IMG/VR virus record: IMGVR_UViG_3300038393_001590
Coordinates: 1 to 24,054 of that record
DNA length: 24,054 nucleotides
Direction: 5' to 3' (one strand)
From: a virus
Lineage: Duplodnaviria; Caudoviricetes
This document shows positions 2 to 22,964 of the stretch, in pieces. Position 1 is the first letter of the stretch. Every line of letters begins with the position of its first letter. A program made the translations under genes and the position numbers. Below the pieces are notes generated by a model, which was not told where the DNA came from, did no database searches, and saw only the letters and a program-made list of their open reading frames with translations.

Positions 2-982
2 GCCGGAATCACGCATAAATACCTCCCGTTCCTGCACTCGCCCCACGAGTTGGCGCTGTTCGTACCCCTGAGCTTTCTTCCGAAGAGCTGGAGCTTCGCG
101 GCGTGGACCGCCTTGAGCACCTGGTTCCTCTACCTCGCATGCTGGATCCTCGCACGCATCACCGAGATCGGCCGCAAAGGGTTACTTCTCCTCTCACTCG
201 CCGCAGCATCGACGACGTTCTGCTACATCGAGGGCCAGGACTGTTTCTTAATCCTCCTTCTCACCGCAGGCAGTCTCTATCTCGTCGTACGGCAGCGCGA
301 ATTCGTCGCCGGCGTCGTGCTTGCGCTCTCGCTTGTGAAACCCCAGACCGCCGTCGTTATTAGCTTCGCTATGCTCTTGAACCGCAGATGGAAATTCACC
401 GCGGGGTTCGCGACCGGCTCGGCTGCGATCGTCGGCGTATCGAGTGCGATCTTTGGACCACATGTCTTTCCCGATCTGATACAGCTGATCAGGAGATCCC
501 AGGATCCGCAGCTGCTGAAGGAAATGGTCGTGGTGCCGCAGAGTTACCCTACGATCAGGGGTATAACTTACCTATTCGGACTGCCCAGCTCGATCGCGAT
601 CATCCTCTCCGCGCTGGTTCTCGCCTTCGGAGCGGTCTGCTGGTACAAGTCGCGGGACTGCGAGTCGGTATTCTCATCCGCCATTCTGATCAGCTGCCTG
701 GTCGCATTCAACTGGCACATCTATGATCTGGCCATCGTCCTAATACCGATCGCCTTACTTCCCGCATCGAGGCTGTCCAGCGCTTCGATCGCCTGGTTTT
801 ATGTTCTGCCCGTGCCTCTGATCTTCCTCGGTGCGGCACCCTTGATTTGCGTTCCGCTCTGCCCCATGATCTGGGAGTACTATGAATCTTCTCATAACGT
901 ACATGCTGCGCGCACTCCTCATTGCCTCGCTGCTCTTCTTCCTGTTCGCCAAACAGATTACGCATCCGGGTCCTCGGCCTGA
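2..982 (+). CDS. GT87/DUF2029-like polytopic membrane glycosyltransferase (GT-C fold), 5'-truncated by the window edge
   Basis: The frame is open from nt 2 (AGITHKYLPFLHSPHELALFVPLSFLP), so the TTG at 50 is not the true start. Motifs PFxHxPxExxLFxPL, EGQD, LALSLVKPQ and HIYDL plus many hydrophobic helices are typical of GT87. Confidence 0.8.
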   Translation, partial: AGITHKYLPFLHSPHELALFVPLSFLPKSWSFAAWTALSTWFLYLACWILARITEIGRKGLLLLSLAAASTTFCYIEGQDCFLILLLTAGSLYLVVRQREFVAGVVLALSLVKPQTAVVISFAMLLNRRWKFTAGFATGSAAIVGVSSAIFGPHVFPDLIQLIRRSQDPQLLKEMVVVPQSYPTIRGITYLFGLPSSIAIILSALVLAFGAVCWYKSRDCESVFSSAILISCLVAFNWHIYDLAIVLIPIALLPASRLSSASIAWFYVLPVPLIFLGAAPLICVPLCPMIWEYYESSHNVHAARTPHCLAALLPVRQTDYASGSSA

Positions 983-1013
983 CGGAAGCCGGACTGAGGA
1001 GTTCAGGCCTTAG
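882..1013 (+). CDS. Putative 43-aa single-pass membrane protein (MNLLITYMLRALLIASLLFFLFAKQITHPGPRPDGSRTEEFRP); not in the ORF track
   Basis: GGGAG lies 4 nt before the ATG at 882, and the N-terminus is a hydrophobic stretch of about 20 aa. The TAG stop (1011-1013) overlaps the convergent TAA stop of the 588-aa gene (1010-1012). The ORF overlaps the GT87 3' end in another frame. Confidence 0.45.
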   Translation: MNLLITYMLRALLIASLLFFLFAKQITHPGPRPDGSRTEEFRP

Positions 1014-2776
1014 TTAACCGGCATCAGGACGAACGTGCCGGTGTCAGTGAACGTTCCCGACAGCGTGCAGCTCCTCGATCCTGAATTTACGACGCCGGTA
1101 GCAGCGTAAGTCTGAGCTGGGTGATCGATGTTCAGCTGGGCCGGCGCCATAATACCGTCGTAACCTTCTGCGTTCGACGTCGGCGTCGATGCAGTATTCC
1201 CTTTGGTCGTGCAGAGCGCGAAACACTTCGTCCCTCCGCAGGTCGCGGTCATGACAGCAGGCGGTCCAGCCGTGTTGCCGGCATTCGTCGTCGTAAGTCC
1301 GCTGTCGGTGACGTTCCAAACTTCGTACATCACCGAGCTGACATTGCCGGCGGCGAAGGTCAGCGTCTCCGCGCAGGCGCTTGTGATCGGCGCGGTGTAT
1401 GCACATGAGTAGTAGCTGTGGATCGTGCCGGTGAAATGACCCGGCGTGCCCACACGCGTATAGGTGAGCCCGCAGCTCGAGCTCGGCGTCGTGCTACAGC
1501 TCGATGAATCCTCCTGGGCCGATGCGACGACAACAAAGTGATTGCTCGCGGGCGTGAGCTTCGTCTCAAACTTGCAAACGTCGGAGGTCGAGGTCGTTTT
1601 CGAATCGCACGCCTTACTCTGTCGGATCGCGGGGTCGCTGCCCGTGACGTCATAGATGGCCGAGTATCCAGCGCCGCGGAATATTTCGTTCATCGTGTCG
1701 ACCTTGTCGCCAGCCCAGGTCGACGCCGCCCAGACCAGCTCGTCGAGTAGCCCGTTCCATTTCACGCCAGTCCCGTCGGCATTATTTCCGATCAGCATAT
1801 TCTGGGTCGGTGTGCCGATCGCGCCTCCCGTTCCGGTCCCGACCAGGTCGCCGTCCAAATAACCTTTGATCGTCGTGCCGTCCGAGGTGAATGCTTGCGA
1901 GAACCAGGTCGATGCCGCGATACAGCAGGGAGTTTGGTACTGGTGGACCGTTCCTCCAGAGTCTTCGTAGAGCATCGGGCCGTTGGCGTTGGTCAGCGAA
2001 AATAACCAGCCATTGTTGCCGCTGTTATTGAGGTTCGAGAGGATTCGCATGAATCCTCCGCCGGCCGTGTTCAGCAGGCCCATCACGGTGATGTTGTTTC
2101 CGCCAGGCCACGCCGGATGATTCAAAGTCACGTAGTCGCCATTCGCCTGGGTTAAGCTGAGAGCTCCTCCCACTCGGCCGGCAACATTGGCCGTCGGCGA
2201 CGAGCCGGAAGCCGTGCCATTATTGACGTCGCAGTTGAAGCTCTCGCCGTGACACCAGTCGGCAAGATTCGCGTCGGTGATCAGCGAGTAATCGTAAGGA
2301 TCCGCGGTGATCGATGCGTTGCCGATCAGCAGCCACACGACGTCGTTCGTCGCAGCGTGCAGCGGCGCCGCAAGCAGAATGATCAGTGCCTCGCCGGTCG
2401 TGTCGTTCCACTCCGGCATGTAGAACTTAAGCGGGCTGCCTCCGCTCTGCGCTGTGCAAAGATGCACGTCGGCCGGTCGAGTTCTGCCTCGGAAATCGGA
2501 GACCGTGTTGTGAACCTTCCCGCTGTGGGCCGTCGTCGCCAGGGCCTTGTACTTCACCCATTGCGGATAGGCAAAATCGGCAAGGTCGACGCTGAGGGCC
2601 TTGTTCAAAACGAGCGGGATCGCGACATCGTAGCTTCCTCCGCAGCTACCTCCTCCTCCGCCACCGGCAGCCTGAGATGCAGACACACTCCCGCCCACAG
2701 AAGCGGTTCCGGATATGGAAACCGACTGCGCGGCTGCAGAAGCCACGAGCGCGAGAGTGATGAGTATCTTTTTCAT
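1010..2776 (-). CDS. Signal-peptide-bearing DUF2341-like plus LamG/ConA-like lectin domain protein (588 aa); putative virion appendage or exported adhesin
   Basis: N-terminus MKKILITLALVASAAA|Q, then a Gly linker. DUF2341-like segment ADVHLC...LKFYMPEWNDTTGEALIILLAAPL...VVWLLIGN. LamG-like segment GRVGGALSL...WFSQAFTSDGTTIKGYLDG...MLIGNN...WNGLLDEL. The C-terminal domain is Ser/Thr/Cys-rich (16 Cys in the whole protein). The ATG directly abuts the upstream TAA. Confidence 0.75.
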   Translation of the reverse strand: MKKILITLALVASAAAQSVSISGTASVGGSVSASQAAGGGGGGSCGGSYDVAIPLVLNKALSVDLADFAYPQWVKYKALATTAHSGKVHNTVSDFRGRTRPADVHLCTAQSGGSPLKFYMPEWNDTTGEALIILLAAPLHAATNDVVWLLIGNASITADPYDYSLITDANLADWCHGESFNCDVNNGTASGSSPTANVAGRVGGALSLTQANGDYVTLNHPAWPGGNNITVMGLLNTAGGGFMRILSNLNNSGNNGWLFSLTNANGPMLYEDSGGTVHQYQTPCCIAASTWFSQAFTSDGTTIKGYLDGDLVGTGTGGAIGTPTQNMLIGNNADGTGVKWNGLLDELVWAASTWAGDKVDTMNEIFRGAGYSAIYDVTGSDPAIRQSKACDSKTTSTSDVCKFETKLTPASNHFVVVASAQEDSSSCSTTPSSSCGLTYTRVGTPGHFTGTIHSYYSCAYTAPITSACAETLTFAAGNVSSVMYEVWNVTDSGLTTTNAGNTAGPPAVMTATCGGTKCFALCTTKGNTASTPTSNAEGYDGIMAPAQLNIDHPAQTYAATGVVNSGSRSCTLSGTFTDTGTFVLMPVN

Positions 2777-4174
2777 TTACAGTACCCGCCGGAAGAAGTC
2801 GTAAATCCCCATCGTTGGGTTCGCTGTCGCGTTGCTGTTCTGGCACGGTCCAACGCGGTCGATCGTCCCTAAGAAGCTTGTCTTCGCCACAGAAAAGACC
2901 TGCGTCCACGATCCATCGGTGCCCGTCATGGACGCGTTGAAGATAAGATTTGTTCCATCGTTCTTCACCTTCAAGTACAGCCAACGGTTCCAGTACGGTC
3001 CGTATGCGGTGCCCGATCCGCCCCAGCCGACGAAGTTAGAGGCATAGGCATTGAACGAAGTCTGCGAGTTCCAGTTGATGACCGACAGTTCCGATTGTGG
3101 CACGTTGCCGCGATAGTCGATCGCGAACGCGGTGATCTTCGTTCCGTCGCCGAGGCAGATGCCAGTCCAGTTGAAATTGTTTGCGTTGCCGACGGCGCCC
3201 ATCACCTTGACTTCGAATTCGTACGGCGTCGACGGCGTCGTCTTCCATAGCTGCCGAACGCTGTCGCCGCCGGCCGTTGTGCCCTGGAACGCGAGGTAAG
3301 ACTGGCCGACCGTGAAGGTGACGCCGGTGTCGTTCGTCTGCGTCCAGCTTCCCGAAAGCGCTGCTCCGGTGAACTCGTCGTCTAATGCGTTCGGCGAACC
3401 AGGCGTTAGATCGGGAGAACTCGAGACCCAGTCTGGCACCGAAGCCCCGCCCGCCGGCGTATTGCAGGATCCGTCGCCGCGAAGGTAGGTAGTCGAGTTG
3501 CAGGTACCGGAGAACAGGCCGTAAACATCGGCCGCGGCAGCGGCCGCAGTCGTGTTCAGTGCGGTTCGCTTGATGAGGCCGTTCGAACCAGGGTCGGCTA
3601 GTCCTGAGCTTCCGCAGCTTCCGATGCTCATGTTGCCGGCGCCGTCCGACTTGAAGCACCCCGAGGCATCGGACGACGGAAGCAGCCACGTGACCGATGT
3701 GACGCCCGTCGGAGACTTGAATGCGACGAAGTGCCCACTGCCGTCGAACAACTTGATCAGGCCCTGTGTCGTACCGTCGCCGACCGACCAGACCCCGGTC
3801 GCCACATCGAACTTGAGTCGCGCATCGCTGGAGAACAATCCCGACGAAGCGAACTGAATGTAGCCATCTGAACCAGAGGCTCCCGTCGCGGCGCCATAGA
3901 TCTTCCGCCAGATGCCCGAGCTTCCGGGGACGGAGCACTCATAGTGCGAGTCGTCGGTCGTCTTGTAAAAGATCGTAGGCCCGAAGCCAGGACCGCAGGC
4001 GGTCGGTAGCGACGTTCCAGACGTCGGCGAGTTTGTCGCGTTGCCCGTGCCGCCGTTGGCCGGCTGAAGAACGCCTTTGACCTGGGAATTCGTCGGCCCC
4101 AAATTGACCTGGGCGGCCGCGAAGCCGCCCAGCATCAGAACGATCGCGAGTTTACTTACGATAGAACGCAACAA
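2777..4174 (-). CDS. Signal-peptide-bearing tail-fibre-like protein with C-terminal ConA-like (beta-sandwich) domain (465 aa)
   Basis: TTG start with GGAG 6 nt upstream; N-terminus MLRSIVSKLAIVLMLGGFAAA|Q. Fibre-shaft motifs: KGVLQPANGGTG, SGSDGYIQFASSGLFSSDARLKFD, VAFKSPTGVTSVTWLLPSSD...SDGAGNMS and TTYLRGDGS. The C-terminal domain starts DDEFTGAALSGSW and ends GIYDFFRRVL. Confidence 0.7.
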   Translation of the reverse strand: MLRSIVSKLAIVLMLGGFAAAQVNLGPTNSQVKGVLQPANGGTGNATNSPTSGTSLPTACGPGFGPTIFYKTTDDSHYECSVPGSSGIWRKIYGAATGASGSDGYIQFASSGLFSSDARLKFDVATGVWSVGDGTTQGLIKLFDGSGHFVAFKSPTGVTSVTWLLPSSDASGCFKSDGAGNMSIGSCGSSGLADPGSNGLIKRTALNTTAAAAAADVYGLFSGTCNSTTYLRGDGSCNTPAGGASVPDWVSSSPDLTPGSPNALDDEFTGAALSGSWTQTNDTGVTFTVGQSYLAFQGTTAGGDSVRQLWKTTPSTPYEFEVKVMGAVGNANNFNWTGICLGDGTKITAFAIDYRGNVPQSELSVINWNSQTSFNAYASNFVGWGGSGTAYGPYWNRWLYLKVKNDGTNLIFNASMTGTDGSWTQVFSVAKTSFLGTIDRVGPCQNSNATANPTMGIYDFFRRVL

Positions 4175-4820
4175 GTGTGTCTCCAGTCCCCGGAGCGACG
4201 GCCATCGCGATGGCGTTCCCGGTGAGCGTGAAATCGGTTCCGGGGAGTAGCAGGACTCCGTTCCGGAAGAGCATCAGTGAATTGAGCGGCGAAGGCGTTG
4301 CTGCCAAGGTGAATGCCGTATTCGCGCCATCGATCGCGCCTGTCGGAACCTCGGCCGAGACGGAGTCCGCCGAAATGCCGTCGACGCGCGACCAGGCCAT
4401 CAGCCAATCGCCGGAGATGGGAGCCACTCCCATCGTGGCCGTCAAGCTCGACAGCGTGTAGTCGGTGCCGGCGATCTCGAGCAGCCCGTTCAGGTACAGC
4501 AACAAGAACGCGACCGGATTCGGAGCTGAGGGCAGCGTGTACGCCGTATTGCTGCCGTTGATCAGGCCCGAAGGCGTGACGCCGTCGTTGAACCCGAGCA
4601 CATTTCCATCGGTTCGGTAATACGCATATAGCCAGTCGCCAACGAGCGGCGCTGCCGCCAGCGTCACGACGGCGCCTGCGATCGTGTAGTCCGTTCCCTG
4701 CCGCAGCACGAGCCCGTTGCGGAACAGCTGCAACGACTGTGGTGGCAGCGGTGAGTTCGACAGGTTGAAGACGGTGTTGACGCCGTCGATGGCTCCAGTC
4801 GGTATCTCTCCGACGACCGC
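4152..4820 (-). repeat. Three tandem ~70-aa protein repeats at the C-terminus of the 1085-aa protein
   Basis: EIPTGAIDGVNTVFNL...LFRNGLVL...GTDYTIAG...AP..GDWL; VTPSGLINGSNTAYTL...LYLNGLL...GTDYTLS...AP..GDWL; EVPTGAIDGANTAFTL...LFRNGVLL..GTDFTLTG...AP..GDTL. Confidence 0.9.
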
Positions 4821-7409
4821 TCCTGCGGATCCTGACTCGCTAGGAACGTCGTCCGGAGGACGAGGATCGAGCGAAGTGTCGGGGTCGAAGAGCGCGCCCT
4901 GGTCAGTGTCGCGGATCCCGATCGTGACGACTCGCAGTGTGCCTTCGTTGACGTTGAAGACGCCGCCACCGGTCGCATCCCTGGCTTCATGGATCGAGAC
5001 CAGGCCGTTCGCGTCGACGTTGGCGTCGAACTCCCAGAAGCGTATGTCGTAAATATTGCCGGCCTCAGGACCGGTCGTTTCTATCTCCCACGCATAGAAC
5101 AGTTCCGAACGTTTGTACTTGTAGCCGTCGTAGCCCGACACCGGAAGCTCGACCGTCTGGCCGTTTCCGTAGCTTGCAGGACCGAAGAACTCGCGGCGAA
5201 CCAGAGCTTTCTTCAGGTTCGCGTTGATCTGCTGCATCAACGTGTACGGATCCGGCTCGCCCGGGAAGAATGCTGAGTCAGCGATCTCGGCGAAGACTCC
5301 GCTCGAGGGACCGACGATCTTCGCGCCTGGATCAATGCCCGGCGTGCCGCCCGTGGCCATGATCACATCCATGTGCCGCACGTTGACGTAGTAAGGCGCG
5401 AAGACACCAGCACCCTGCGCATCCAACTGGAAGGCTGGCTCGACATAATCGGCCTGCACCTTAGCGATCGCCGAGCGCGTGTGGTTAACCGTGTACGTCG
5501 TTCCGTTGATCTTGAGGTACAGGTGCTTGACCGTCTTCGCCGCATGGTCCACGCGGAAAGCCGACTCGATCGACACCCATGCCGTCGCATCATAGAGCGC
5601 CGGGTTGAATATCGCCGAGGCCTCGTTATCCCAGTGCCCCGTCCCGGTGACTCCAGTGTAAGTGAAGCTGCGATACTGGCCGCTGGCAAAGTCTATTTGC
5701 CAAGCCATGTTGTAGACCCAGTCGTCAGCGTTCTGCTGGATCTGCCACTCGATGGCGCGGCAGAGCGACCGGTAAGCGGCCGGGATCTGCACGTCGAACT
5801 TCATGACGAAGTCGGTCGCGTCGTTGTGCGCACCGGCCTTCAGGTACCAGAAGGCATTGTTGAAGGCGTACTTCGGCGTGCTGTGGAACTGGGCGATGTC
5901 GCCCGGGACCATAAATCCCGCCGGCGCGGCGTTCGGGTCACCTCCTCCGGAATTACCGACGTCGCCTGGCTGGATCCATGTGTTGAGCGTCTGTAGCTCG
6001 TCGCCCGTGTAGAGCACGGACGGCCCGGTCGCGTCCGGGATATTGCCGGCGTCGCCGATGATGACCGGATCGCCCAACCTCACCGTGACGATGTCGTTGC
6101 CGATGTTGTCGCTGTAGCGGTCGTCATCGATCCCGAACTGCAGCCACTTGGCGCCAACAGGCGCAGGATAGGAGTCGTTTGAGCCGCTCTCGTGGATCTC
6201 GATCACCGTGCCGTCATCGTCGACAACGACTGACATCAGCGATCCAAGCTGCGCTGTCGAGCCGACCACGCTCTTGGTCGGGAATCCTTTCCCAGTCGAA
6301 CCTCCGGTCGTTCCGGTCGGCACGCCAGCCTGGCCGTCTGGACCGACGAACGGTCGCGCGTCCGACATGCGCACTGAACCGGTCGCTGAGATCTGGATGG
6401 TCTGTCCTTCGCGGATCGGCACCTGCAACTTCACAGGCGGCGTGCCGTCGTTCGCGCCGTACTGCAGTGCGCTATTCAGGCCTCCAGCGACCCACTCGAA
6501 GGGCTGCGCGGTTGCCGGAACGGTGAGCTGATAGACCTGCGCGCCATTGCGCTGACAGAAAGCGAAGACTGCGACGCGTCCCCAGCTCGTCGTAATGACG
6601 CCGGAGTTGTACATCAGGACTTGCGTCGTCACCGCACCGGTCGCCGCGTTTATCTGCGCGGTAATGCGGTGCAGCTGGCCCTTCGAGTAATCGGGCTGAG
6701 CGAATGCAGGACCGTCTGTCGTCCAGCGCCAACTATGCAGGAACTTCGATTCGCCGTAGCTGTACTGATAGCCATCCGCCGGCGACTTCGGCGCCGGGAT
6801 TGTCTGGCCGTTGTAGAACTCGCCGCAGTAGATGACCTCAGCTTCAATGACTGCGTACTTCGCGTTCCGGTTCAGCCGGGTGACGACGTTCTCGCGCATC
6901 GGCTCATCGCGCACGAGCTCGGAGTCGTTCACGTTCACGTAGTTCGGTGTCTGCTCGACGGTCAGCGCCGATCGCTGCCGCTGTGCGATGGTGACGACCG
7001 AGAGCACGCCATCGGTGCTTGCTGCGGATCCCGACTGCTGTCCGCCTTCCGACTTGCGATAGAACTCCTGGCAGCTGACGAGGCCGCTGTTCTGGTCAAC
7101 CTTCCAGCCCGCGTACCACATGGCGCCAGGGCCCGAGATCCATCCTGTCGCGGGATTGACGGTCGAATAGATTCCCCAGACATAGAGCAGCTCGTCGCGC
7201 TGATAGGGATAGCCATCGACGTCTGAGACCGGGAGGTTGACGGTGTCGCCGTGCTTGTAGCGACCGTAGAAGATCTCCGGACGAACGGCCGCGAAGCTGG
7301 CGTTGTCGGCGATGCGCGCCATCTCGAGGCCGAGCGCGGGCTGCTCGGCCTTGAGTACTGCATCGGGGAGATCTGCGAACCCCGGCACCCTTTGAAGTTT
7401 GAAGGCCAT
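4152..7409 (-). CDS. Modular tail-tip/fibre (receptor-binding) protein, 1085 aa
   Basis: Lies directly after the hub gene. Contains three copies of a ~140-aa domain (GxT[VI]x[LA]PxSxxDGYxYxxxE), a LecA/PA-IL-like segment, a ConA-like segment and three C-terminal ~70-aa beta repeats. Confidence 0.75.
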   Translation of the reverse strand: MAFKLQRVPGFADLPDAVLKAEQPALGLEMARIADNASFAAVRPEIFYGRYKHGDTVNLPVSDVDGYPYQRDELLYVWGIYSTVNPATGWISGPGAMWYAGWKVDQNSGLVSCQEFYRKSEGGQQSGSAASTDGVLSVVTIAQRQRSALTVEQTPNYVNVNDSELVRDEPMRENVVTRLNRNAKYAVIEAEVIYCGEFYNGQTIPAPKSPADGYQYSYGESKFLHSWRWTTDGPAFAQPDYSKGQLHRITAQINAATGAVTTQVLMYNSGVITTSWGRVAVFAFCQRNGAQVYQLTVPATAQPFEWVAGGLNSALQYGANDGTPPVKLQVPIREGQTIQISATGSVRMSDARPFVGPDGQAGVPTGTTGGSTGKGFPTKSVVGSTAQLGSLMSVVVDDDGTVIEIHESGSNDSYPAPVGAKWLQFGIDDDRYSDNIGNDIVTVRLGDPVIIGDAGNIPDATGPSVLYTGDELQTLNTWIQPGDVGNSGGGDPNAAPAGFMVPGDIAQFHSTPKYAFNNAFWYLKAGAHNDATDFVMKFDVQIPAAYRSLCRAIEWQIQQNADDWVYNMAWQIDFASGQYRSFTYTGVTGTGHWDNEASAIFNPALYDATAWVSIESAFRVDHAAKTVKHLYLKINGTTYTVNHTRSAIAKVQADYVEPAFQLDAQGAGVFAPYYVNVRHMDVIMATGGTPGIDPGAKIVGPSSGVFAEIADSAFFPGEPDPYTLMQQINANLKKALVRREFFGPASYGNGQTVELPVSGYDGYKYKRSELFYAWEIETTGPEAGNIYDIRFWEFDANVDANGLVSIHEARDATGGGVFNVNEGTLRVVTIGIRDTDQGALFDPDTSLDPRPPDDVPSESGSAGAVVGEIPTGAIDGVNTVFNLSNSPLPPQSLQLFRNGLVLRQGTDYTIAGAVVTLAAAPLVGDWLYAYYRTDGNVLGFNDGVTPSGLINGSNTAYTLPSAPNPVAFLLLYLNGLLEIAGTDYTLSSLTATMGVAPISGDWLMAWSRVDGISADSVSAEVPTGAIDGANTAFTLAATPSPLNSLMLFRNGVLLLPGTDFTLTGNAIAMAVAPGTGDTLVAFYRK

Positions 7410-7412: not shown

Positions 7413-9797
7413 TTATCCGAACGTCGGTGCAGCCGCGCCGTCCGACATCTTGCCGGTGACGTCGCTGTAGAACATGTAGCGGCCCTTCTCGTACGTCGAA
7501 GCAAGTGTCCAGGTCGGCGTGCCATCGGGTGCGATCTTGAACTGCCCGTACTTCAGCAGCGCAGAAGCGTCGACGACCCTTAGCTGGACCTTGTTCTCGC
7601 TCAGTAGCCACTTGCGATCGAAGACCTGCAGCAGCCAGTTCGTGATCCCGAAGACACCGTTCACGCGATCGGGAACCAGCGGATGCGTGACCAGGATCAG
7701 GTCGAACGGCTCGAGCGGCAGCATCTTCCACTGGCCCTCGGCCTCGAAGGTGAGGTTTTTCAGGCCATAACGCAGGAAGATCAGCCTCGAGATGAGCGCT
7801 GCGATCAGGTAGCCCTGGAAGCCCGCGCGCACGCCGTCGGACTCGATGATGTGCTGCCCGGGAAGGTTCTGGTACTTGACTAGGCTCGGGTCGTACTTCT
7901 CGACGCGCTCGGAAAGGAACTTCCCGGATCCGTCGCTCGAGTCGTCCTTGTCGAAGCGATAACTGATCGTGTTCACGAGCTCGGTCTGGCCAGCCGTCGG
8001 CGTCTTCGACAGGTCGCGCTTCGTCAGCGTCATCACCGACGACACGCCGTTCAGCGGCCACATGAAATTGAACTTCAGGACGCCGAGATTGTTCTCCCAC
8101 ATCACCCCGCCGAGCGGCGTCATGATCTGCTTCTCGATCCAGTCGCGCGCTGCCGGCGGCGAGGTGATCGAGAACTTGAACTTCATGCCGGCGAAGACGG
8201 AATCTCGCGCGGCACGCAGAGTGTCGCCATCGAATTCAAGGCTCGACATCGAAAGCTCGTTGATCAGAAGGTCGAGCAGGATGTCGATCGGGTGCCCGGT
8301 CAGAGTCCGCGGGTGGTCATTATCGGTTGGCTGACCGTCGTCGCCTGTGTTGTAGACGACGTTGTCAAGCTTCACCATCCCGCCTGAGCAGGTGAAGGTG
8401 TACCCGTTATTACCGTCCATCGAGTCGACGGTGTCGATCACGCCGGTGAAGCAGGTCAGCAGATCGGCGCGGTTCATCCCGACGTACCCGGTCTTCAACC
8501 ATATCCGCTTGCCTTCGAATGTGAAGGTCGCCATATCGGCCGTGAGCCGATGCGCGCTCGTGTTCGCCGGTGCAGGATCGTCGAGCACGTCGAACACAAG
8601 CTGACTGAGTGAAGAGCTGCCATTGAGCTCGTCGACCGTCAGCTCGATGTCCTGAGGAGAAGCTTTCAGCCACGGCCGCAATGCATTGCCAGCGACAGAC
8701 AGGCGAAGTCCCCAGACGAAGCCGTCGAGGTCCTCGGCGTAGAACACGTCGCGCGACGCGTTGTAGGGTCGACCGAAGCCGAAGGTATCCGAGCCGCCGG
8801 TATAAAACGAGTTCGGCAGTCCGAACCCTGTGATATCGAGGTTCGTCGCCAGGGTGAAGGCGACCGGGTCAAGCTTGTTGACCCCCACGATGATCTTGCC
8901 GTCGGAGCCCACCTGGTGGCTCATTCCGCGGTAAGTATTCGAAAGCGTCCCGACGACCGAAAGTGTCGCTAGGTCGAACTTGTAGAGCGCCGCACCGCCA
9001 GCCACGATGATCGAATGATCGGCCGGAACGTAGCATGCTGCTGCGTTCGCGGATCCCACGGCATGAGCGATGGCAGTCGGTCCACTCCAGTCGATCCCAT
9101 AGATGTGTGCACCGCTGACGATCCAAGTCTGTCCGAACTTGTCAATGATCGGCTGATAGTAGCCACGGCCGTCGGAACCGACACCGATAGTCGCGAGTTC
9201 AGTGATCGGGCTCGGGCTCATCAGCGAGACTCGGCCGACGACGTCGACAGCTACTACGCGCTGAATCCCGGCTATCTTTCCGCTCGTGATGCAACTGTTA
9301 CCCCACTGCGTGAACGGACCCGCGGCGGCGATGCCGCCCGCATTGATGTAGCGCGAATTCTCACTGCCATCAGGATTGATCTGGACGATGGCAGCGTTAT
9401 CGTCAATGCTCTCTATACCGATGTAGAAGTACGTTCCGTCATAGTGCAGCGTGTCCTCGGACACGGACGCGAACCCAGAGATCGATCCCAGCTCAATGAC
9501 GACATAGCTGATGGCTCCGTTGCGCAGCTTGTAAAGGGTGCACGTGTTGCCGCCAGGAGAATACGCGATCCAGTAAAGGCTCTTCGTGGTCTCATCCCAA
9601 AAGGATCCAACTCCCCAGCCAGTCGAGGATTCGAACGGTCCTTCGACGACGGTATAGTTAGGGGCTGCAGAGTCAGGGAACGTGAAGCCCTTGCGGTTGG
9701 TGAAGGAGTAGGGATAGGTGTCGATCTCGACGAGCCACATCGGGCGTCGCTGCCGCTTGGCTGCGTTCGTCGCGAATGCTGTCGAGGTAGAGATCAC
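7413..9797 (-). CDS. Putative baseplate hub / tail-tip protein (794 aa) with an inserted beta-propeller-like region
   Basis: Lies after the Dit-like gene with a GTGA overlap. Hub-like segments RRPMWLVEI...FEGKRIWLKTGY...CFTGVIDTV...GHPIDILLDLL...LEPFDLILVTHP. Residues ~45-370 are beta-rich with blade-like spacing (SLYWIAY, GQTWIV, SIIVAGGAALYKFDLAT). Confidence 0.65.
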   Translation of the reverse strand: MISTSTAFATNAAKRQRRPMWLVEIDTYPYSFTNRKGFTFPDSAAPNYTVVEGPFESSTGWGVGSFWDETTKSLYWIAYSPGGNTCTLYKLRNGAISYVVIELGSISGFASVSEDTLHYDGTYFYIGIESIDDNAAIVQINPDGSENSRYINAGGIAAAGPFTQWGNSCITSGKIAGIQRVVAVDVVGRVSLMSPSPITELATIGVGSDGRGYYQPIIDKFGQTWIVSGAHIYGIDWSGPTAIAHAVGSANAAACYVPADHSIIVAGGAALYKFDLATLSVVGTLSNTYRGMSHQVGSDGKIIVGVNKLDPVAFTLATNLDITGFGLPNSFYTGGSDTFGFGRPYNASRDVFYAEDLDGFVWGLRLSVAGNALRPWLKASPQDIELTVDELNGSSSLSQLVFDVLDDPAPANTSAHRLTADMATFTFEGKRIWLKTGYVGMNRADLLTCFTGVIDTVDSMDGNNGYTFTCSGGMVKLDNVVYNTGDDGQPTDNDHPRTLTGHPIDILLDLLINELSMSSLEFDGDTLRAARDSVFAGMKFKFSITSPPAARDWIEKQIMTPLGGVMWENNLGVLKFNFMWPLNGVSSVMTLTKRDLSKTPTAGQTELVNTISYRFDKDDSSDGSGKFLSERVEKYDPSLVKYQNLPGQHIIESDGVRAGFQGYLIAALISRLIFLRYGLKNLTFEAEGQWKMLPLEPFDLILVTHPLVPDRVNGVFGITNWLLQVFDRKWLLSENKVQLRVVDASALLKYGQFKIAPDGTPTWTLASTYEKGRYMFYSDVTGKMSDGAAAPTFG

Positions 9798-10183
9798 GAA
9801 ACAAACTCCCGGAACACGAAGGTGAATTTGAGGACGTTGCCGCCGGAGGACTTGAAGTTCACCTTCGGATCGAAGTCCGTGTCCTCGAGCGTGTAGGTCT
9901 TGTGTGTGCCACTGGTCGAATCGGGGTAGTAGTCGAAGATGTTCCCCTCGAGTATCCAGTCAGTAAAGGCATCCCATGCCGATGCGTCGCCGATCACCGC
10001 GGTGTCGAACTGCAGGGTGATGAACTTGTCGACCCTGTCCGTCACCCACTGGCCAAGGCCGTCGCCGGTGTAATCGTCGTGTCGAATGGCGCGCTTGGTC
10101 GGCAGCCACACCTTCTGTACCGGGGGAAAGGTCGGAATGAACGTGGTCGGACCTGACCCGTAAACAAATTTCGCTTGGATCAC
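9794..10183 (-). CDS. Putative distal tail (Dit-like) protein, 129 aa
   Basis: Small beta-rich gene immediately after the tape measure. GTG start with AGGAG upstream. Sequence ITLQFD...WDAFTDWILEGNIFDYYPD...FTFVFRE is typical of this position. Confidence 0.6.
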   Translation of the reverse strand: MIQAKFVYGSGPTTFIPTFPPVQKVWLPTKRAIRHDDYTGDGLGQWVTDRVDKFITLQFDTAVIGDASAWDAFTDWILEGNIFDYYPDSTSGTHKTYTLEDTDFDPKVNFKSSGGNVLKFTFVFREFVS

Positions 10184-10192
10184 GTTCGTCTC

Positions 10193-12904
10193 CTAGCTCT
10201 TCTTGCGAACCGATCTGGTCCGGCTCGAGGTCAACTGCACGCCGCCCTTCTCTACGGTGTGGCTGATCTTCTTGATCAGCTCGCGAAGTGAAGCCCCATG
10301 GATGTGAACGACTGGCGTCTCGCGTGGCATGTGCTTGAAGATTGCCTCCGCGAACGCGCTCGTCGTGCGATCGTCGTCCAGTGGGATCGCGATTTCCGTC
10401 TGTCCCGGGCCCGATAGAGCAGCGGCGGTGTTCGCTGAACTCGCAGCATCGCCAAGGATCGCCATCGTCGGTCCGAAGACCATGCCGCCGGAGGCGAATC
10501 GCTGCACCTGCGTCGTTGTCGTCGGTGCGGTCTGCGTCTCCGAAACTGGCGTCGTTTCGATGGGCTTGGTTCCGTCTGGTGCGCCGGCAGTTTCGCCGCC
10601 TCCTGATTGTCCGGGCTTGATGCCATAGGCGAAAGAGCCGGCGATCGCCGCGACCGCGAAAAATTCCGCGGCTGATGCGAAGTCGGCGCCCGCGCGCCCT
10701 GGGTTCCAAAACGAGTCGGCTATTCCCCATGCAGTCCAGTACAGGCCCCACATGATGGCTCGCCCGGCAATTGAGGCTGCTTCTTCAGCGAGCGATTCGC
10801 GAAGTGCTCGACCGAGCGACTCCTGCCCCAAGACCCATCGAGATACCGCATTGCCGAAGGCCGCGGAGGTGTCCAGGATGACGTCGTCGAACGCCTTCTG
10901 GGTGTCGCTGAGGTCCTTGCGCTGTTTGCGCATTTCGGCCGACCAGTGATCGAGCAACTGGATGGTCGAGTTGTGCGACCGATTAAGCTTGTCAGTCGCC
11001 GCGGTATTCTTCTCTTCCGCTCCGGTCAGTTGATCGAGGACGACACGAATGCCGGCCAATTCGTCCTTGAACTGTTCGGCAAGTGCAAGGTCGCCTTTGT
11101 CGATAGCGAGACCGATCTTTGCCGTCAGGTTCTTCTCTGCCAGCTGTAGCATTGCGACCGACAGGTCGGCGATTCCATCGCCAAGTTCGCGAACCTTGTC
11201 GAGTGCCGCTTGCGTCTTATCTACTTCGTCCTGCCAGACCTGTCCGCTCTTTATTCCGAACTGCGCGAGTATGTCGGTGATCTCCTGTACTCGCTGGTTG
11301 ACCTCGCTCGGCAGCGGAATGATGTCATCCACGGGTGTGGCCGTGGTCTGGCTGAGCGCTTGCTTGATCGCCGCCTGTAGGGCCTGTACACCTTTCAATC
11401 GGAGCTCGACCAGCTTCGTCTGGTGCTGCTCTTCAAGCGCCTCGATCTGAGCGTGCAGTTCCTTGATGCGATCGACGTTTCGTGTCGGATCCTGCGAGAC
11501 GAGAGCAAGCGTTTCGCGCAGGCTCTTTAACGTCAGCTGGTACTGCTGTTCAGCGAAGTGCTGCTGGGCATCGATGAAGCTCGAATAGCCGGCCTTCGCG
11601 AGTGTTAGCTTCAGTTCTGACTCGGCCCGGGCAAGCTCGATGCGCGCCGCCATGATCGTCTTCTCGGCATTGATCGAGGCCTCGCCATGCTTGATCTGTT
11701 CGTCCAGCGCTTCCTTATCGAACTGCTTCGATATCGCAGCCTGCTGTTCTGCCTGCACCTTGAGCAACGATGTCAGCCGAAGAATGGTCTCGGCGGCTTT
11801 GTCCGCTTCTTCCTTCGTAACGTCGTGTACAGCGCTAAAGTCGACCGACTCTTGTTCTAGCCGATATTTGGCGAGTGTGTTCTGGGCTGCGCGCAGCGCC
11901 GCTTCGTTCTTATTAACTTCTTCGGTGAGGAGTTCGAATTCCTTGCGGGTCTTCGCCGATCCCTCGAGGTTGATCAGTTGATACGCCTTCTGCAACTCCA
12001 CAAGCTTTGTCGCCTGATCGGTGAGCGCCTTGTTGAGTTCGAGCGTGGCCTCGTATTGCTTCTTCTCGGCGTCGGTGTAGATGAAGGTCTCGGAAACAAA
12101 CTCCGTTAGCTTCTCGGTGGCTTGGACAATTAACTGGATCAGGAGAATGATCGCGAGGCCGGAGAAGGCGGTCTCCATGGCCTGCGCTACTAGGGGAAAC
12201 TGCTGTAGGAACTTGCCCACCTGATAAGAGCCCGTGACGCCGATCTCGTTTCCGAGTATCTGCGCCGTTCCGGCGGCCCTTCTCATTGATTCCGCTGAGC
12301 GCTCGCCGGCGGCTTCCGATTCAACACCGAATTTCAATGCAGCATCGGCTGCAGCTTTCAGAGCGAGTTCGGACTCTAAGGCAGCCTCAGCTTCGGCGCG
12401 GATCCCAGCCGTTGCCTCATGCGATGCGACCTCGACTTCTCGTTGTGCTGCCGCAAGCAAGGCTCCGGTTGTTGCTACTTTCTCTTCAGCTGTAGCAAGG
12501 GCAGTCAGCGCTTGCGTGTCGCCTTCTTCGGCAACGACAGCGGCCTTGATAGCTGCGTCGAGCTCGGCCTGTGCTTTCTTATGCTCGATGGTCGCGCGGG
12601 TCGCGGTATCGGTAGCACGGGCAAGCGCCAACCAACTCGAGTCGACAGCTTGTACGGCTGCGCTCGAAGTGGCTGCTGCTCCCTGCGCCGCCGCGCCGAT
12701 TTCCGCGCCGGCCTTGGTCGACTGATCGGCAGCGACCTGAGCAGATTGTCCTGCCTGCTCCCATGCTTGGCCGACGGTGTTGACCTGAGCCTGCACGGCC
12801 GGAGCCTTGGCGGTCGCGTCGGCTTCCACCTTCGTCCATGTCTGGTCGAGTTGGGTGGCGTCGCCGAGAAAATTAAAGATCGCGTCGCCTGCAGAGATCG
12901 CCAT
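10193..12904 (-). CDS. Tape measure protein, 903 aa
   Basis: Long Ala/Glu/Gln-rich helical protein after the chaperone genes. C-terminal motif RFASGGMVFGPTMAILGD...EIAIPLDD, with hydrophobic segments near residues 240-260 and 710-760. Confidence 0.92.
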   Translation of the reverse strand: MAISAGDAIFNFLGDATQLDQTWTKVEADATAKAPAVQAQVNTVGQAWEQAGQSAQVAADQSTKAGAEIGAAAQGAAATSSAAVQAVDSSWLALARATDTATRATIEHKKAQAELDAAIKAAVVAEEGDTQALTALATAEEKVATTGALLAAAQREVEVASHEATAGIRAEAEAALESELALKAAADAALKFGVESEAAGERSAESMRRAAGTAQILGNEIGVTGSYQVGKFLQQFPLVAQAMETAFSGLAIILLIQLIVQATEKLTEFVSETFIYTDAEKKQYEATLELNKALTDQATKLVELQKAYQLINLEGSAKTRKEFELLTEEVNKNEAALRAAQNTLAKYRLEQESVDFSAVHDVTKEEADKAAETILRLTSLLKVQAEQQAAISKQFDKEALDEQIKHGEASINAEKTIMAARIELARAESELKLTLAKAGYSSFIDAQQHFAEQQYQLTLKSLRETLALVSQDPTRNVDRIKELHAQIEALEEQHQTKLVELRLKGVQALQAAIKQALSQTTATPVDDIIPLPSEVNQRVQEITDILAQFGIKSGQVWQDEVDKTQAALDKVRELGDGIADLSVAMLQLAEKNLTAKIGLAIDKGDLALAEQFKDELAGIRVVLDQLTGAEEKNTAATDKLNRSHNSTIQLLDHWSAEMRKQRKDLSDTQKAFDDVILDTSAAFGNAVSRWVLGQESLGRALRESLAEEAASIAGRAIMWGLYWTAWGIADSFWNPGRAGADFASAAEFFAVAAIAGSFAYGIKPGQSGGGETAGAPDGTKPIETTPVSETQTAPTTTTQVQRFASGGMVFGPTMAILGDAASSANTAAALSGPGQTEIAIPLDDDRTTSAFAEAIFKHMPRETPVVHIHGASLRELIKKISHTVEKGGVQLTSSRTRSVRKKS

Positions 12905-12910
12905 GAGAGG

Positions 12911-13189
12911 TCACCCAAGTACTTCCCACCCTGATTCTTCCTTGCCCTGTCCTGCTTGCAGTTGGCCTTGTGGAGTGCGTGTGCGCTGCGCGGCTTCTGC
13001 CCGTCGCTGCATCTTTCGCGCATACGACCTGAACATCACGAGGAGCCTTTCCTCGGACCAGCGACGATGGATCTGGTCCGGGTCCAGGCCCCACTCCGAT
13101 AGGGCTACCTCGTAGACCTCGCCGACGCTTGGAAGCTCTTCGCCTTCTCCAAGATCTGCACTGTCATCGCCAACTGCTGAGCAAAAGGG
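12911..13189 (-). CDS. Frameshift-extended tail assembly chaperone segment (lambda gpT-equivalent), read in the -1 frame
   Basis: The -1 frame is open from the slippery site to TGA at 12911-12913: ...FCSAVGDDSADLGEGEELPSVGEVYEVALSEWGLDPDQIHRRWSEERLLVMFRSYARKMQRRAEAAQRTRTPQGQLQAGQGKEESGWEVLG. It fills the gap before the tape measure and has no start codon of its own near its 5' end. Confidence 0.8.
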   Translation of the reverse strand, partial: PFCSAVGDDSADLGEGEELPSVGEVYEVALSEWGLDPDQIHRRWSEERLLVMFRSYARKMQRRAEAAQRTRTPQGQLQAGQGKEESGWEVLG

Positions 13190-13569
13190 AAAGCGACCAC
13201 CGCGATCTTGCTGAAGGCTCGCGCCATCTGCTCTTCCGTCGCACCGGTCTTCTCGTCCATGACCGCCTCGCGTGGTAGCACGCCGCTCTTGTCGTAGGCG
13301 AAGACCAGGTCACAGACCAGCTCTGGGAACTGGAGGAAAGCGAACGCGAGACCGGCTCGGAACGTCGCCGCGGTGGCTTCAGGAGACGTTGCGGCTTGAA
13401 CTTTCGAAGCGATATCGATGAACTGTTGGCGCCAGGCGCGCTGTGCTGCGATACGCAGCACGGGGATCTCGTACTCGGCGGTGCCGAGCTTCACTTTGAT
13501 CGGGCGCATCTCGACAGCTTCCTGTTCGCTGCGCCCCGTCATCAGTACTTCCATTCCGGGTAATTGCAT
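13105..13569 (-). CDS. Tail assembly chaperone (lambda gpG-equivalent)
   Basis: Lies between the tail tube and tape measure genes; sequence PIKVKLGTAEYEIPVLRIAAQRAWRQQF. The likely start is ATG 13569 (AAAGGT upstream) or ATG 13542. The track start at 13656 runs through a terminator hairpin. Confidence 0.82.
   Translation of the reverse strand: MQLPGMEVLMTGRSEQEAVEMRPIKVKLGTAEYEIPVLRIAAQRAWRQQFIDIASKVQAATSPEATAATFRAGLAFAFLQFPELVCDLVFAYDKSGVLPREAVMDEKTGATEEQMARAFSKIAVVAFPFAQQLAMTVQILEKAKSFQASARSTR
13183..13192 (-). promoter_or_regulatory. Programmed -1 ribosomal frameshift site TTTCCCTTTT
   Basis: In the chaperone frame, GCT TTC CCT TTT gives two overlapping in-frame X XXY YYZ heptamers: T TTC CCT and C CCT TTT. 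Confidence 0.8.
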
Positions 13570-13601
13570 GGGGAGAACCTTTCGGGTAGGTGTGGCGTGC
13601 A

Positions 13602-13638
13602 TAAAAATCGGGGCCGAGTGCATAACGCACCCAGCCCC
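13602..13638 (-). terminator. Probable intrinsic terminator after the tail tube gene
   Basis: Minus strand reads GGGGCTGGGTGC-GTTAT-GCACTCGGCCCC (12-bp stem with two G-U pairs) followed by GATTTTTA. Confidence 0.7.
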
Positions 13639-13675
13639 AGCTTCCATGCCGAACAACGATCGGTTGACTTGCGGT

Positions 13676-14284
13676 TTAGAGCGGCTCGGCCGTCTTATCG
13701 ACGTAGTAACCCAGGCGCTCGCCGGCGGGCTTGCTCGAATCGGCGAAGAGGTTGAACTGGACCGGGATGATGGTCTTGTCTGCGCGCTTCATCGCGAGCG
13801 TGACATTGCCCTTTGCGATTGCCTTGAAGCCGACGAAGATGCGCCACGGCTTCGTGGTAAGGGAGCCGGCTGGTGCGAGCCCTTCAAAGCCGACCATGAC
13901 GAACTTGCGATCTCCGCTTCCGAAAGCGACCTTCGTCGTTCCCGGTACGCCGCTGGCGGCTGCAACTGTCGTCGTTTTAGAGGCCGATATCGCATATGCC
14001 AGGTTGTCGAGAGTGGGTTCCGCCATCTTGCAGCTCAAGGTCCCAACTTCGCCGTTCAGGAAGCTGTCGATCGGCGCCATCTCTTCATCGACGGTGGTAT
14101 CTTTGAAGGTCGGGTTGTAGGCGAACTGAAGGCCATCGTCGGTGTAACCAACTTCCTTCCATGCCGCATCCCACACCACCGGATCTACGTTGACGGGGGG
14201 TTCGGTCGTGCCCAGAACTGCGATGAGAATGCGCGCCGGGCCGACGATGATCTTGTTTGCATTTCCTGTTACGAGATTGCCCAT
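13676..14284 (-). CDS. Major tail (tube) protein, 202 aa
   Basis: Sequence NANKIIVGPARILIA...WKEVGYTDDGLQFAY...MAEPTLDNLAYA...TIIPVQF. Size and position before the chaperone and tape measure fit, and a terminator follows. Confidence 0.87.
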   Translation of the reverse strand: MGNLVTGNANKIIVGPARILIAVLGTTEPPVNVDPVVWDAAWKEVGYTDDGLQFAYNPTFKDTTVDEEMAPIDSFLNGEVGTLSCKMAEPTLDNLAYAISASKTTTVAAASGVPGTTKVAFGSGDRKFVMVGFEGLAPAGSLTTKPWRIFVGFKAIAKGNVTLAMKRADKTIIPVQFNLFADSSKPAGERLGYYVDKTAEPL

Positions 14285-14302
14285 CGGATTTCCTTTCGTC
14301 GT

Positions 14303-14710
14303 TTAATTGGCACGCATCGAGAGCTTAAAAAAGCCTACGACCGTGGCCCATCCTGTATCGGGATCGAACATCGGTTGCCCCGGACCTTCTGCATATCCGG
14401 AAACGATTACGCCACTCGGCGAACCGTCGAGCTGTTCGGCCTGGTCGAGCAGGTCATATACAGCCGCAAATAACTGCATCGCATCCGGCACCTTCAGCGC
14501 CCAGGTCTTCACCTGAATGCTTGGCTCCGCGAAGGTAGCGGTCTCTGGGTTCTGCGGACCGCCGCGAGCAAAGAACGTAACCGCCTTCTGTCCGGCCTTA
14601 GCATCGAAGCCTGCCGGCAGATCAGGCCAAGCGACGATGCCGCCGCTCAACGTTGCGACCGGTGAATTCCCGAGCAGGACCTGGCGAATGCACGCGTGTA
14701 TGTCGAGCAT
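14303..14710 (-). CDS. Tail terminator / tail completion protein (DUF3168-like), 135 aa
   Basis: Lies just before the tail tube gene; sequence IRQVLL...VATL...WPDLP...SIQVKTWA...AMQLFAAVYDLLD. Confidence 0.7.
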   Translation of the reverse strand: MLDIHACIRQVLLGNSPVATLSGGIVAWPDLPAGFDAKAGQKAVTFFARGGPQNPETATFAEPSIQVKTWALKVPDAMQLFAAVYDLLDQAEQLDGSPSGVIVSGYAEGPGQPMFDPDTGWATVVGFFKLSMRAN

Positions 14711-14713
14711 TGG

Positions 14714-15118
14714 CTACCTCTCCAGGCGCCGCCGAACGGCATCGCCGATCCTGCCCAGAAACCTTTGAACGGCCGGATAGATGTAGGGCCGCGCTGTCAT
14801 CTTTCGCGTGCCAATCTCTAGCCATCCGCCATAACCACTTTGCGAATAGATCGCTGCGCTCACACCCGTCGGTGTCGGCACCGCCACGCCTTCGGTGACT
14901 TCCCCATTGCCAGACTCATTCACGATCGACTCGCCGAAGCTATTGACCTCGACCGCAATCGTTCGTCGGTTGTGGCCGCTCTTCACAGGCGAGCCCTGAA
15001 CAGCCGCAGGCCACATGTCCTGCGTCAATACCTCGGTCACGCCGGCGGCGATTGCCGCATGCATCTCTGCGCGACCTGTTGGGTTGATCCGTACCGTTGC
15101 TTCGGCGTTCAGGCTCAT
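14714..15118 (-). CDS. HK97 gp10-like tail/neck protein, 134 aa
   Basis: Motifs SPVKSGHNRRTI and YGGWLEIGTRKMTARPYIYPA. Confidence 0.85.
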   Translation of the reverse strand: MSLNAEATVRINPTGRAEMHAAIAAGVTEVLTQDMWPAAVQGSPVKSGHNRRTIAVEVNSFGESIVNESGNGEVTEGVAVPTPTGVSAAIYSQSGYGGWLEIGTRKMTARPYIYPAVQRFLGRIGDAVRRRLER

Positions 15119-15839: not shown

Positions 15840-15855
15840 GGCGCACCTTGGGTGG

Positions 15856-15884
15856 AAGAAAAGGCCCGGGCGATTGCCCGGGCC
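15856..15884 (-). terminator. Intrinsic terminator after the major capsid gene
   Basis: GGCCCGGGC-AATC-GCCCGGGCC forms a perfect 9-bp stem followed by TTTTCTT, 20 nt after the capsid stop. Confidence 0.85.
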
Positions 15885-15904
15885 CATCAGGAGACGGACG
15901 ACGA

Positions 15905-17320: not shown

Positions 17321-17375
17321 TTGCCTTTTCTCCAGTGAAGGAAGTGGGTGAAGCTGGGGCCCTTGTGGCGGCTTG

Positions 17376-17744: not shown

Positions 17745-17769
17745 TAGCTTTTCCTCCCCAAAATGGGAA

Positions 17770-22963: not shown

Positions 22964-22964
22964 G

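Follow-up and report, generated by a model that had tools for sequence, protein, structure and literature searches.

Leader-bearing fibre- and lectin-like proteins encoded after the tail tip of a siphophage: candidate exported tail appendages

Introduction

Tailed virions are taught as being finished in the cytoplasm. In an excerpt of one report, a binding protein is even argued to be of phage origin because it has no signal peptide (PMC6199706). The locus described here raises the question of whether parts of a tailed virion could be exported and join it later. We have analysed a 24,054-nt stretch of DNA from a virus of the Caudoviricetes, a soil phage with a long tail (IMG/VR record IMGVR_UViG_3300038393_001590; hereafter, the window), in which an earlier note had pointed to two genes with signal peptides behind the tail-tip gene. 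The titles and abstract openings returned by literature searches contained no description of exported tail fibres; subscription papers and supplements may mention leaders.

Results

Gene organization and start codons

The two genes lie next to the tail-tip gene of a siphophage late region (Table 1). Both ORFs were present with the N-termini described previously, together with the 23-nt overlap between the tip gene and the start of the 465-aa gene and the TAAATG in which the stop of the 465-aa gene abuts the start of the 588-aa gene. Their description as the last genes of the tail operon held up to the convergent GT87 gene and not beyond it, as the contig ends 1 kb further; no lysis genes were identified in this contig. 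A contig from run X1 covered positions 2373-6240 with 0 differences; it is possibly the window's own source and thus not independent.

Table 1. Features of the window and their coordinates
Feature	Coordinates	Strand	Remarks
GT87 glycosyltransferase	2..982	+	Convergent; cut by the contig end
588-aa leader-bearing lectin-like protein	1010..2776	-	ATG start; leader, short beta peptide, Gly linker, DUF2341-like, LamG and C-terminal domains; 16 Cys
C-terminal domain, aa 379-588	1013..1642	-	Atlas model resembles domains of phage and Acidobacteriota proteins (TM 0.77-0.79)
LamG/ConA-like domain, aa 212-347	1736..2143	-	PF13385, E 4e-12, over the Pfam cut-off
Mature N-terminal beta peptide and poly-Gly linker, aa 17-44	2645..2728	-	Candidate docking peptide (putative role); conserved in P0023 and P0024
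Predicted Sec/SPI leader of the 588-aa protein, 16 aa	2729..2776	-	Cut before Gln17; kept in 2/2 homologues
465-aa leader-bearing fibre-like protein	2777..4174	-	TTG start; leader, conserved N-terminal peptide, Gly/Ser/Thr-rich stalk, C-terminal ConA-like head; 8 Cys
Head domain, aa ~256-465	2780..3409	-	ConA-like beta-sandwich; large family, mostly on leaderless proteins including phage fibres
Mature N-terminal peptide, aa 22-44	4043..4111	-	Candidate docking peptide (putative role); common to P0002, P0015 and P0084
Predicted Sec/SPI leader of the 465-aa protein, 20-21 aa	4112..4174	-	Cut before Gln22; kept in 19/21 homologues
1085-aa leaderless tail-tip protein	4152..7409	-	4 Cys; repeated N-terminal-type domains and own inserted domains
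Three tandem ~76-aa DUF4183-like repeats, tip C-terminus, aa 865-1085	4155..4817	-	Mobile module; candidate three-fold landing pad for a trimer of exported protein (putative role)
GGAG ribosome-binding-like site	4181..4184	-	6 nt before the TTG of the 465-aa gene, inside the tip gene
Remaining siphophage late region	7413..24040	-	Terminase, portal, capsid, neck, tail tube
Tape measure, distal tail and hub genes	within 7413..24040	-	Assigned by position and size

The database call of the 465-aa gene (P0001, 452 aa) begins at the ATG of codon 14, which removes most of the leader. This call and the use of a TTG start in our assignment would suit a reading in which the N-termini are mis-called starts or hydrophobic anchors and the proteins ordinary cytoplasmic tail fibres. 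We favoured the TTG over Met14 because an SD-like GGAG precedes the TTG only. Moreover, the ATG start of homologues takes in the full leader, the n-h-c pattern and the Gln at +1 persist in leaders of differing sequence, and the shift in cysteine parity described below tracks the leader, all of which makes this reading very improbable. Translation may begin at the second TTG (codon 2), which would give a leader of 20 rather than 21 residues; the homologue P0002 has a Met at the matching position.

The gene context also bears on whether the two genes are lysogenic-conversion cargo, encoding adhesins on the surface of the lysogen or infected cell in the manner of Eib, Lom, Bor or the Bdellovibrio MAT fibres, possibly together with GT87. 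Their location on the strand of the late genes, with overlapping starts and a GC content similar to that of the neighbours, argues against this, as does a scan of positions 900-8000 that found no promoter-like site (a weak test, with 1.6 expected by chance). No stable hairpin was found between the stops of the 588-aa and GT87 genes (z -0.4). The convergent GT87 gene does adjoin, and codon usage of the two genes correlated less well with that of the pooled core late genes (0.74 and 0.83), though similar values were obtained for terminase and head-morphogenesis genes, which were not part of that pool (0.75 and 0.80). Precedents for such cargo are found in prophage-encoded exported adhesins (PMC8065619, excerpt) and in the MAT fibres, which are phage-fibre-like and have signal peptides (PMC10769870, excerpt). 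Glycosylation of the exported proteins by GT87 was considered and rejected, adjacency being its sole support.

Leaders, cysteines and export

Leaders were assessed with our own von Heijne-type rule (not SignalP), which requires a basic n-region, an uncharged h-region and small residues at -3 and -1. The rule was applied to 17 late genes (terminase excluded), allowing any start within the first 60 codons. Only the 465-aa and 588-aa proteins passed, with cuts after A21 and A16, respectively, and the other 15, including the tip, failed. This agreed with the AxA-type signal peptides proposed for both proteins in the earlier note. Among internal control windows, 30 of 7019 passed (0.4%), 0 of them with Gln at +1. 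The leader was kept by homologues of both the 465-aa (19 of 21) and the 588-aa protein (2 of 2), mostly with Gln at +1. An N-terminal Gln exposed by cleavage can form pyroglutamate.

We have then compared cysteine numbers in 169 proteins, comprising 167 relatives and the two window proteins. The 37 leader-bearing members had a median of 2.0% Cys, with an even number in 35 and an odd number in 2, and Gln at +1 in 31. The 132 leaderless members had a median of 0.7%, with even, odd and zero counts in 49, 75 and 8 proteins (Fisher 6.6e-10 for the even-cysteine bias of leader-bearing vs. leaderless proteins). After dereplication at 40%, the even/odd counts were 25/1 for the leader-bearing and the even/odd/zero counts 34/54/4 for the leaderless proteins (n=92; Fisher 6e-8). 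Greedy clustering was used for this step, single-linkage having merged all leaderless proteins into one cluster. The tip, hub and tape measure contain 0-0.6% Cys. Dutton et al. reportedly used an even-cysteine bias in 2008 as a criterion for disulfide-bonded exported proteins. Based on the conserved leaders, the Gln at +1, the cysteine enrichment and the even-number bias, all read from sequence, both proteins are likely exported and disulfide-folded outside the cytoplasm.

Neither protein contained a lipobox, a Tat (twin-arginine) motif or a transmembrane helix, nor did either show a barrel, a YadA-type or a Pfam surface anchor. A C-terminal beta-barrel was absent as well, the C-terminus of the 465-aa protein being a ConA sandwich and that of the 588-aa protein resembling soluble domains. 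With none of these attachment features, the proteins have no visible means of surface display, and together with the gene context this makes lysogenic-conversion adhesins an improbable reading. Thus, of the earlier proposal of export followed by entry into the virion or by action as adhesins or decoys, the export part was strongly supported and the surface-adhesin route was weakened.

Domains of the two proteins

The 465-aa protein had no match in Pfam, PHROG or NCBIfam, no cultured phage was found to match it, and several locus scans for further relatives returned none. In its structural model, the C-terminal half formed a ConA-like sandwich and the N-terminal half was of low to moderate confidence, so that the term "fibre shaft" is drawn from relatives and motifs rather than from a confident model. 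The head fold was closest to a GH43 C-terminal domain (Z 20.3, rmsd 2.4, 181 aligned); among its other matches were the phage receptor-binding modules J-1 Dit CBM2 (Z 14.2, rmsd 4.0, 192 aligned) and TM4 gp23 (Z 13.2, rmsd 3.5, 178 aligned). By fold match, the head would be a carbohydrate-binding-type domain common to phage fibres, with predicted sugar binding. For the 588-aa protein, the DUF2341 match was weak (E 0.0025, under the cut-off) and AlphaFold2 on a 3-row alignment gave a pLDDT of 29.

No known N-terminal virion-anchor family was detected in either protein; short conserved peptides occupy this position instead. The peptide of aa 22-44 is shared by P0015, which differs from the 465-aa protein elsewhere.

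In two of the fetched loci (L001, L016), a leaderless gene immediately following a PF13550 tail tip encodes the same head. Overall, 17 head-bearing ORFs were counted in these loci once duplicate loci and two short fragments had been left out, 13 of them leaderless and 4 passing the leader rule. In a quick tree of the head, with 60 of 141 forks open, 12 of 144 members were leader-bearing, and their distribution took 8 changes, at least 2 of them forced. One leader-bearing head protein was also found between portal and head genes (L012) and one in a bacterial contig (L023), so the leader-bearing forms have no fixed link to tail tips. Another locus (L025), located via the capsid protein, stops before its tail tip.

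The tail-tip protein and the slot behind it

Among the three N-terminal-type domains of the tip, BLAST aligned two of three pairs. For the C-terminal repeats, a link with T7 gp17-N (Atlas family share 14-20%) and one with a K1 depolymerase, in its N-terminal part (E 5e-4), were weak leads, and matches to structural proteins of cyanophage and Methylophilales phage were likewise weak. Branched receptor-binding systems of the CBA120/G7C/KP32 type have a T4 gp10-like XD2/XD3 branching domain on the primary protein; a reading of the repeats as CBA120-type XD domains found no support in sequence, as no profile match to CBA120 TSP1-4 was obtained. In a podovirus-like locus (L011), repeat-bearing, DUF2341 and head proteins lie side by side, all leaderless, which shows that the repeat also occurs without exported partners and has no specificity for export; the DUF2341 protein of L011 aligned weakly with the 588-aa protein (26% over 256 columns). 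The repeats and leader-bearing fibres were directly seen together only in the window, and scans for more such loci found none. Indirectly, the repeat-bearing tip P0202 and the leader-bearing P0015, with the same N-terminal peptide, each occur on a single contig of 28,748 bp. Seven of seven sister phages whose tip belongs to the same family lack the three repeats, and six of them have a leaderless gene in the next slot.

These observations bear on a further possibility, namely that the proteins are exported and disulfide-folded and never enter the virion, acting in the periplasm or as free lectins released at lysis that mask receptors, serve as decoys or make cells and particles stick together. 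All the export evidence fits this equally well, and the tip has inserted domains of its own. The repeated appearance of leader-bearing heads on the head tree and their occurrence outside tail slots are also in its favour. The tight coupling to the tip gene, however, and the leaderless gene in the slot of most sister phages speak for a tail function, a free lectin would have no obvious need for conserved N-terminal peptides, and leader-bearing proteins of Cellulophaga phage phi10:1 are annotated as virion proteins. We consider free lectins rather unlikely, though the most credible of the alternatives.

Discussion

The shared head domain, the slot after the tip and the phi10:1 precedent favour a virion route, and we lean slightly towards the two proteins being periplasm-folded, receptor-binding tail appendages that dock on the tail tip at lysis. 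The two genes would be co-transcribed with the late genes, and the host Sec system would export both proteins during late infection, with cleavage before Gln. Folding, disulfide formation and trimerisation would take place in the periplasm of what would be a diderm host, likely an acidobacterium. Lysis would then mix the compartments and allow the appendages to dock on the cytoplasm-built tip, presumably through their conserved N-terminal peptides and the three DUF4183-like repeats. Since the tip itself carries inserted domains, the two proteins may be dispensable for the virion and are probably accessory or secondary receptor-binding parts.

In a broader and more tentative form, to which we would give somewhat less than an even chance, tailed phages of soil diderms would possess a second, extracytoplasmic assembly line. 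Sec-exported receptor-binding lectins, stapled by the disulfide enzymes of the host, would be kept apart from the tails until lysis, when their N-terminal peptides would snap onto the three-repeat pad. The pad would be a mobile module adding this option to unrelated tips, and cytoplasmic and exported stalks would exchange heads. Should exported parts become attached at lysis, the virion would rely on the Sec and disulfide machinery of the host to mature. Genes for host range in soil viromes would then be mis-called, as by the database start that drops the leader here, or dismissed as morons; mixed bursts could let particles swap appendages, and tailed phages could display disulfide-rich binders.

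Comparison with known systems

The leaderless fibres of L001, L016 and L011 share the ConA-like head, those of L001 and L016 also the slot after the tail tip, and the siphophage modules TM4 gp23 and J-1 Dit CBM2 the fold of the 465-aa head. The leaderless fibres differ in that their N-terminal anchor domains are cytoplasmic and that they show neither a leader nor an even-cysteine bias. Virion proteins with signal peptides are known from filamentous phages (pIII and pVIII), and the disulfides of pIII form outside the cytoplasm. Filamentous virions, however, assemble at the membrane during extrusion, whereas the tailed virion is finished in the cytoplasm.

Prophage morons such as Eib, Lom and Bor carry outer-membrane barrels or lipid anchors. 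Both window proteins lack the C-terminal barrel of trimeric autotransporters and outer-membrane morons (Eib, Lom) and the Bor/Cor lipobox (Cys at +1); the likeness is that these morons are phage-encoded and exported (PMC8065619, excerpt). The MAT fibres of Bdellovibrio bacteriovorus are comparable as phage-fibre-like mosaics with signal peptides and variable adhesive tips, but they are bacterial cell-surface proteins, many with a terminal S74 domain that is absent here (PMC10769870, excerpt). [quoted passage not shown]

The proposed docking resembles branched receptor-binding systems, namely the CBA120 TSP1-4 with their XD domains (PMC8825819) and KP32/K11/KP34 with a branching domain and a conserved peptide (PMC13352976). 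As far as the excerpts of these papers go, a primary tail protein bearing small beta domains in tandem is there combined with secondary binders having a short conserved N-terminal peptide, which is the arrangement proposed here, and no export is described for either system.

The cultured phage phi10:1 (GenBank KC821618), which has tail-tube and tape-measure-like genes, offers the precedent for leaders. Its gp091-gp094 are encoded consecutively after the tail core and carry n-h-c leaders with Gln at +1, as here. They are annotated as "structural protein, experimental MS/MS proteomics" in a record that is silent on leaders, and may have co-purified rather than belonged to the virion. The host is a member of the Bacteroidota, gp091-094 have 0-2 Cys vs. 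8 and 16 in the window proteins, and no sequence match between the two sets was seen. With phi10:1 in culture, the reading of the two proteins as exported tail appendages is testable now.

Two genes after the tail tip encode conserved leaders

The window is the entire 24,054-bp contig. Its minus strand carries the late region of a phage with a long tail, with family matches to terminase, portal, head morphogenesis, capsid, neck and tail-tube genes. Position and size were the basis for assigning tape measure, distal tail, hub (794 aa) and tail-tip protein (tip), and PHROG tail-fibre matches fell within the C-terminal part of the tip. Downstream of the tip lie the fibre and lectin genes, then a convergent GT87 glycosyltransferase truncated at the contig end. 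The latter is a membrane glycosyltransferase whose stop is separated by 27 nt from that of the lectin, and it may be either a host gene or one with which the phage modifies receptors. Across positions 1-24054, no gene for a holin, endolysin or spanin was identified; in sister phages, lysis-like genes come after the fibre and glycosyltransferase genes. In a protease/scaffold-like head gene product (11 Cys, no leader), cysteines cluster close to the N-terminus, possibly as a metal site.

Coordinates of the features in the window and in the compared loci
Feature	Locus	Coordinates	Strand
GT87 glycosyltransferase	window	2-982	+
Lectin (588 aa)	window	1010-2776	-
Fibre (465 aa)	window	2777-4174	-
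Tip (1085 aa)	window	4152-7409	-
Head gene (482 aa)	window	17818-19266	
gp095, pectate lyase	L026 (Cellulophaga phage phi10:1)	19389-20879	
Three large genes	L018	7973-19082	
Glycosyltransferase cluster	L027	12958-15064	
Glycosyltransferase cluster	L028	12817-14304	
Adjoining head-domain genes	L016	7200-10574	
Leader-bearing and leader-like genes	L012	8021-11339	

The two ORFs, their N-termini, the 23-nt overlap and the TAAATG junction described in the earlier note were all present in the sequence. A GGAG lies 6 nt upstream of the fibre TTG start, and nothing comparable precedes the ATG at codon 14, the start in the database gene call. By our own von Heijne-type rule, used rather than SignalP, the fibre and lectin carry a predicted Sec/SPI signal peptide (leader), as did 0/15 other window late genes; among internal control windows 30/7019 passed, none with Gln at +1. 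Conservation of the leader, named earlier as a check, was seen in 19/21 fibre and 2/2 lectin homologues, and the two leaderless fibre homologues match the C-terminal half only.

Cysteine parity argues for export

A profile search gave 7946 clusters, of which the best 150 were examined. Cysteines were counted in 169 proteins (167 relatives, the fibre and the lectin, excluding the database copy of the fibre). An even count was found in 35 of the 37 leader-bearing proteins, with a Cys content 2-3 times that of the 132 leaderless ones (49 even, 75 odd, 8 zero). Exported proteins with disulfide bonds characteristically show a bias towards even cysteine numbers. After greedy dereplication at 40% the bias persisted (25 even/1 odd vs 34 even/54 odd/4 zero; Fisher 6e-8) and, together with the conserved leaders, it backed the export inferred earlier. 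The fibre has 8 cysteines, five of them invariant across five close sequences, and the lectin 16; tip, hub and tape measure contain only 0-0.6% Cys. Judging from these sequence features, both proteins are very probably exported and would fold oxidatively; that they are not exported, against leaders and parity alike, is highly improbable.

Head and lectin domains

The C-terminal ~210 residues of the fibre (head) gave a confident model (pLDDT mostly >90) of a ConA-like sandwich. Its closest structure was a GH43 C-terminal domain (Z 20.3, rmsd 2.4, 181 aligned), and it also resembles legume-type lectins, the J-1 Dit module and the TM4 gp23 receptor-binding domain, likeness of fold being no demonstration of function. 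The lectin comprises a weak DUF2341-like part, LamG and a last domain known from phage and bacterial clusters; thus, of the bodies proposed earlier, LamG and the modelled ConA-like head stood, and DUF2341 was a weak match. Structural look-alikes of the last domain include Acidobacteriota proteins, and head relatives occur in a Vicinamibacterales record and an Acidobacteriota MAG, so the host is likely an Acidobacteriota. The sequencing runs containing window DNA are labelled soil metagenome.

In two loci (L001 and L016), leaderless genes that immediately follow PF13550 tail tips end in the same head, which is also found in other phage loci. On a quick tree of 144 heads, the leader-bearing heads (12) require 8 changes, of which at least 2 are forced, and the clade of the window fibre contains a leaderless protein. 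This argues that stalks of the exported and the cytoplasmic kind exchange heads. In L016, two proteins with this head, one leaderless and one leader-bearing, adjoin after the tail tip. In L012, the portal gene and the head gene that follows it flank two proteins away from any tail module: a head-domain protein with a leader and an Ig-type protein with a leader-like N-terminus.

Tip repeats and destination

Neither the fibre nor the lectin contains a lipobox, Tat motif, transmembrane helix or barrel; both would therefore be soluble in the periplasm of a diderm host up to lysis. They are outside the autotransporter, lipoprotein-moron and MAT families, and a surface moron is improbable. The longest contig of a fibre homologue (P0005) and of a lectin homologue (P0024) shares the value 52,142, which suggests that the two travel as a pair. 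Podovirus-like L011 encodes leaderless counterparts of fibre, lectin and repeats consecutively, linking these modules to virion surfaces; the repeat thus also occurs with leaderless partners. Another podovirus-like locus, L018, has three consecutive genes (832, 562 and 1975 aa) with leader-looking N-termini, the largest with 11 He_PIG Ig stretches.

The tip ends in three ~76-aa DUF4183-like repeats. They also cap unrelated PF13550 tips (P0180, P0190) and so constitute a mobile module. With three N-terminal-type domains related to one another (aa ~1-145, ~150-290 and ~700-835; 2/3 pairs align), inserted domains and the C-terminal repeats, the tip seems to be a single-chain pseudo-trimer. The repeats are absent from all seven sister phages that share the tip family and gene order; the gene after the tip is leaderless in 6/7, the seventh lacks a clear fibre gene, and a leader-bearing fibre occupies that slot in 0/7. 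Between their tail and lysis genes, sisters with leaderless fibres carry clusters of soluble glycosyltransferases (Pfam matches Galactosyl_T and GT2 in L027 and L028; similar in L030-L033), candidate virion glycosylation genes.

Another tip with the repeats and a leader-bearing protein that shares the fibre's mature N-terminal peptide are each on one contig, equal in size. By analogy with pairs of branching domain and conserved peptide in the available parts of PMC13352976 and PMC8825819, the repeats might form a three-fold landing pad for the exported proteins, the weakest step of the explanation; they gave no match to CBA120 domains, and their links to T7 gp17-N and to the N-terminal region of a depolymerase are weak. 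Docking of fibre and lectin on the virion is slightly favoured, and free or periplasmic lectins are a possible but distinctly less probable outcome. Most likely, the system would work like a branched receptor-binding system with secondary parts made via the periplasm.

Comparison with known systems

No description of exported tail fibres was found in the literature searched, including the available parts of PMC3556154, PMC5723332 and PMC6199706. The record of a tailed phage in culture, phi10:1, lists leader-bearing proteins among those of the virion: per its annotation, gp091-094 are structural by MS/MS, and all four start with leaders ending before Gln. The adjacent gp095 likewise carries a leader followed by Gln and, unlike these four neighbours, no MS annotation; of the remaining genes tested there, 0/16 passed the rule. 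Among the nearest exported phage-like adhesins are MAT fibres (PMC10769870) and Eib/Lom/Bor (PMC8065619), but, in the parts available of these sources, both are cell-surface proteins.
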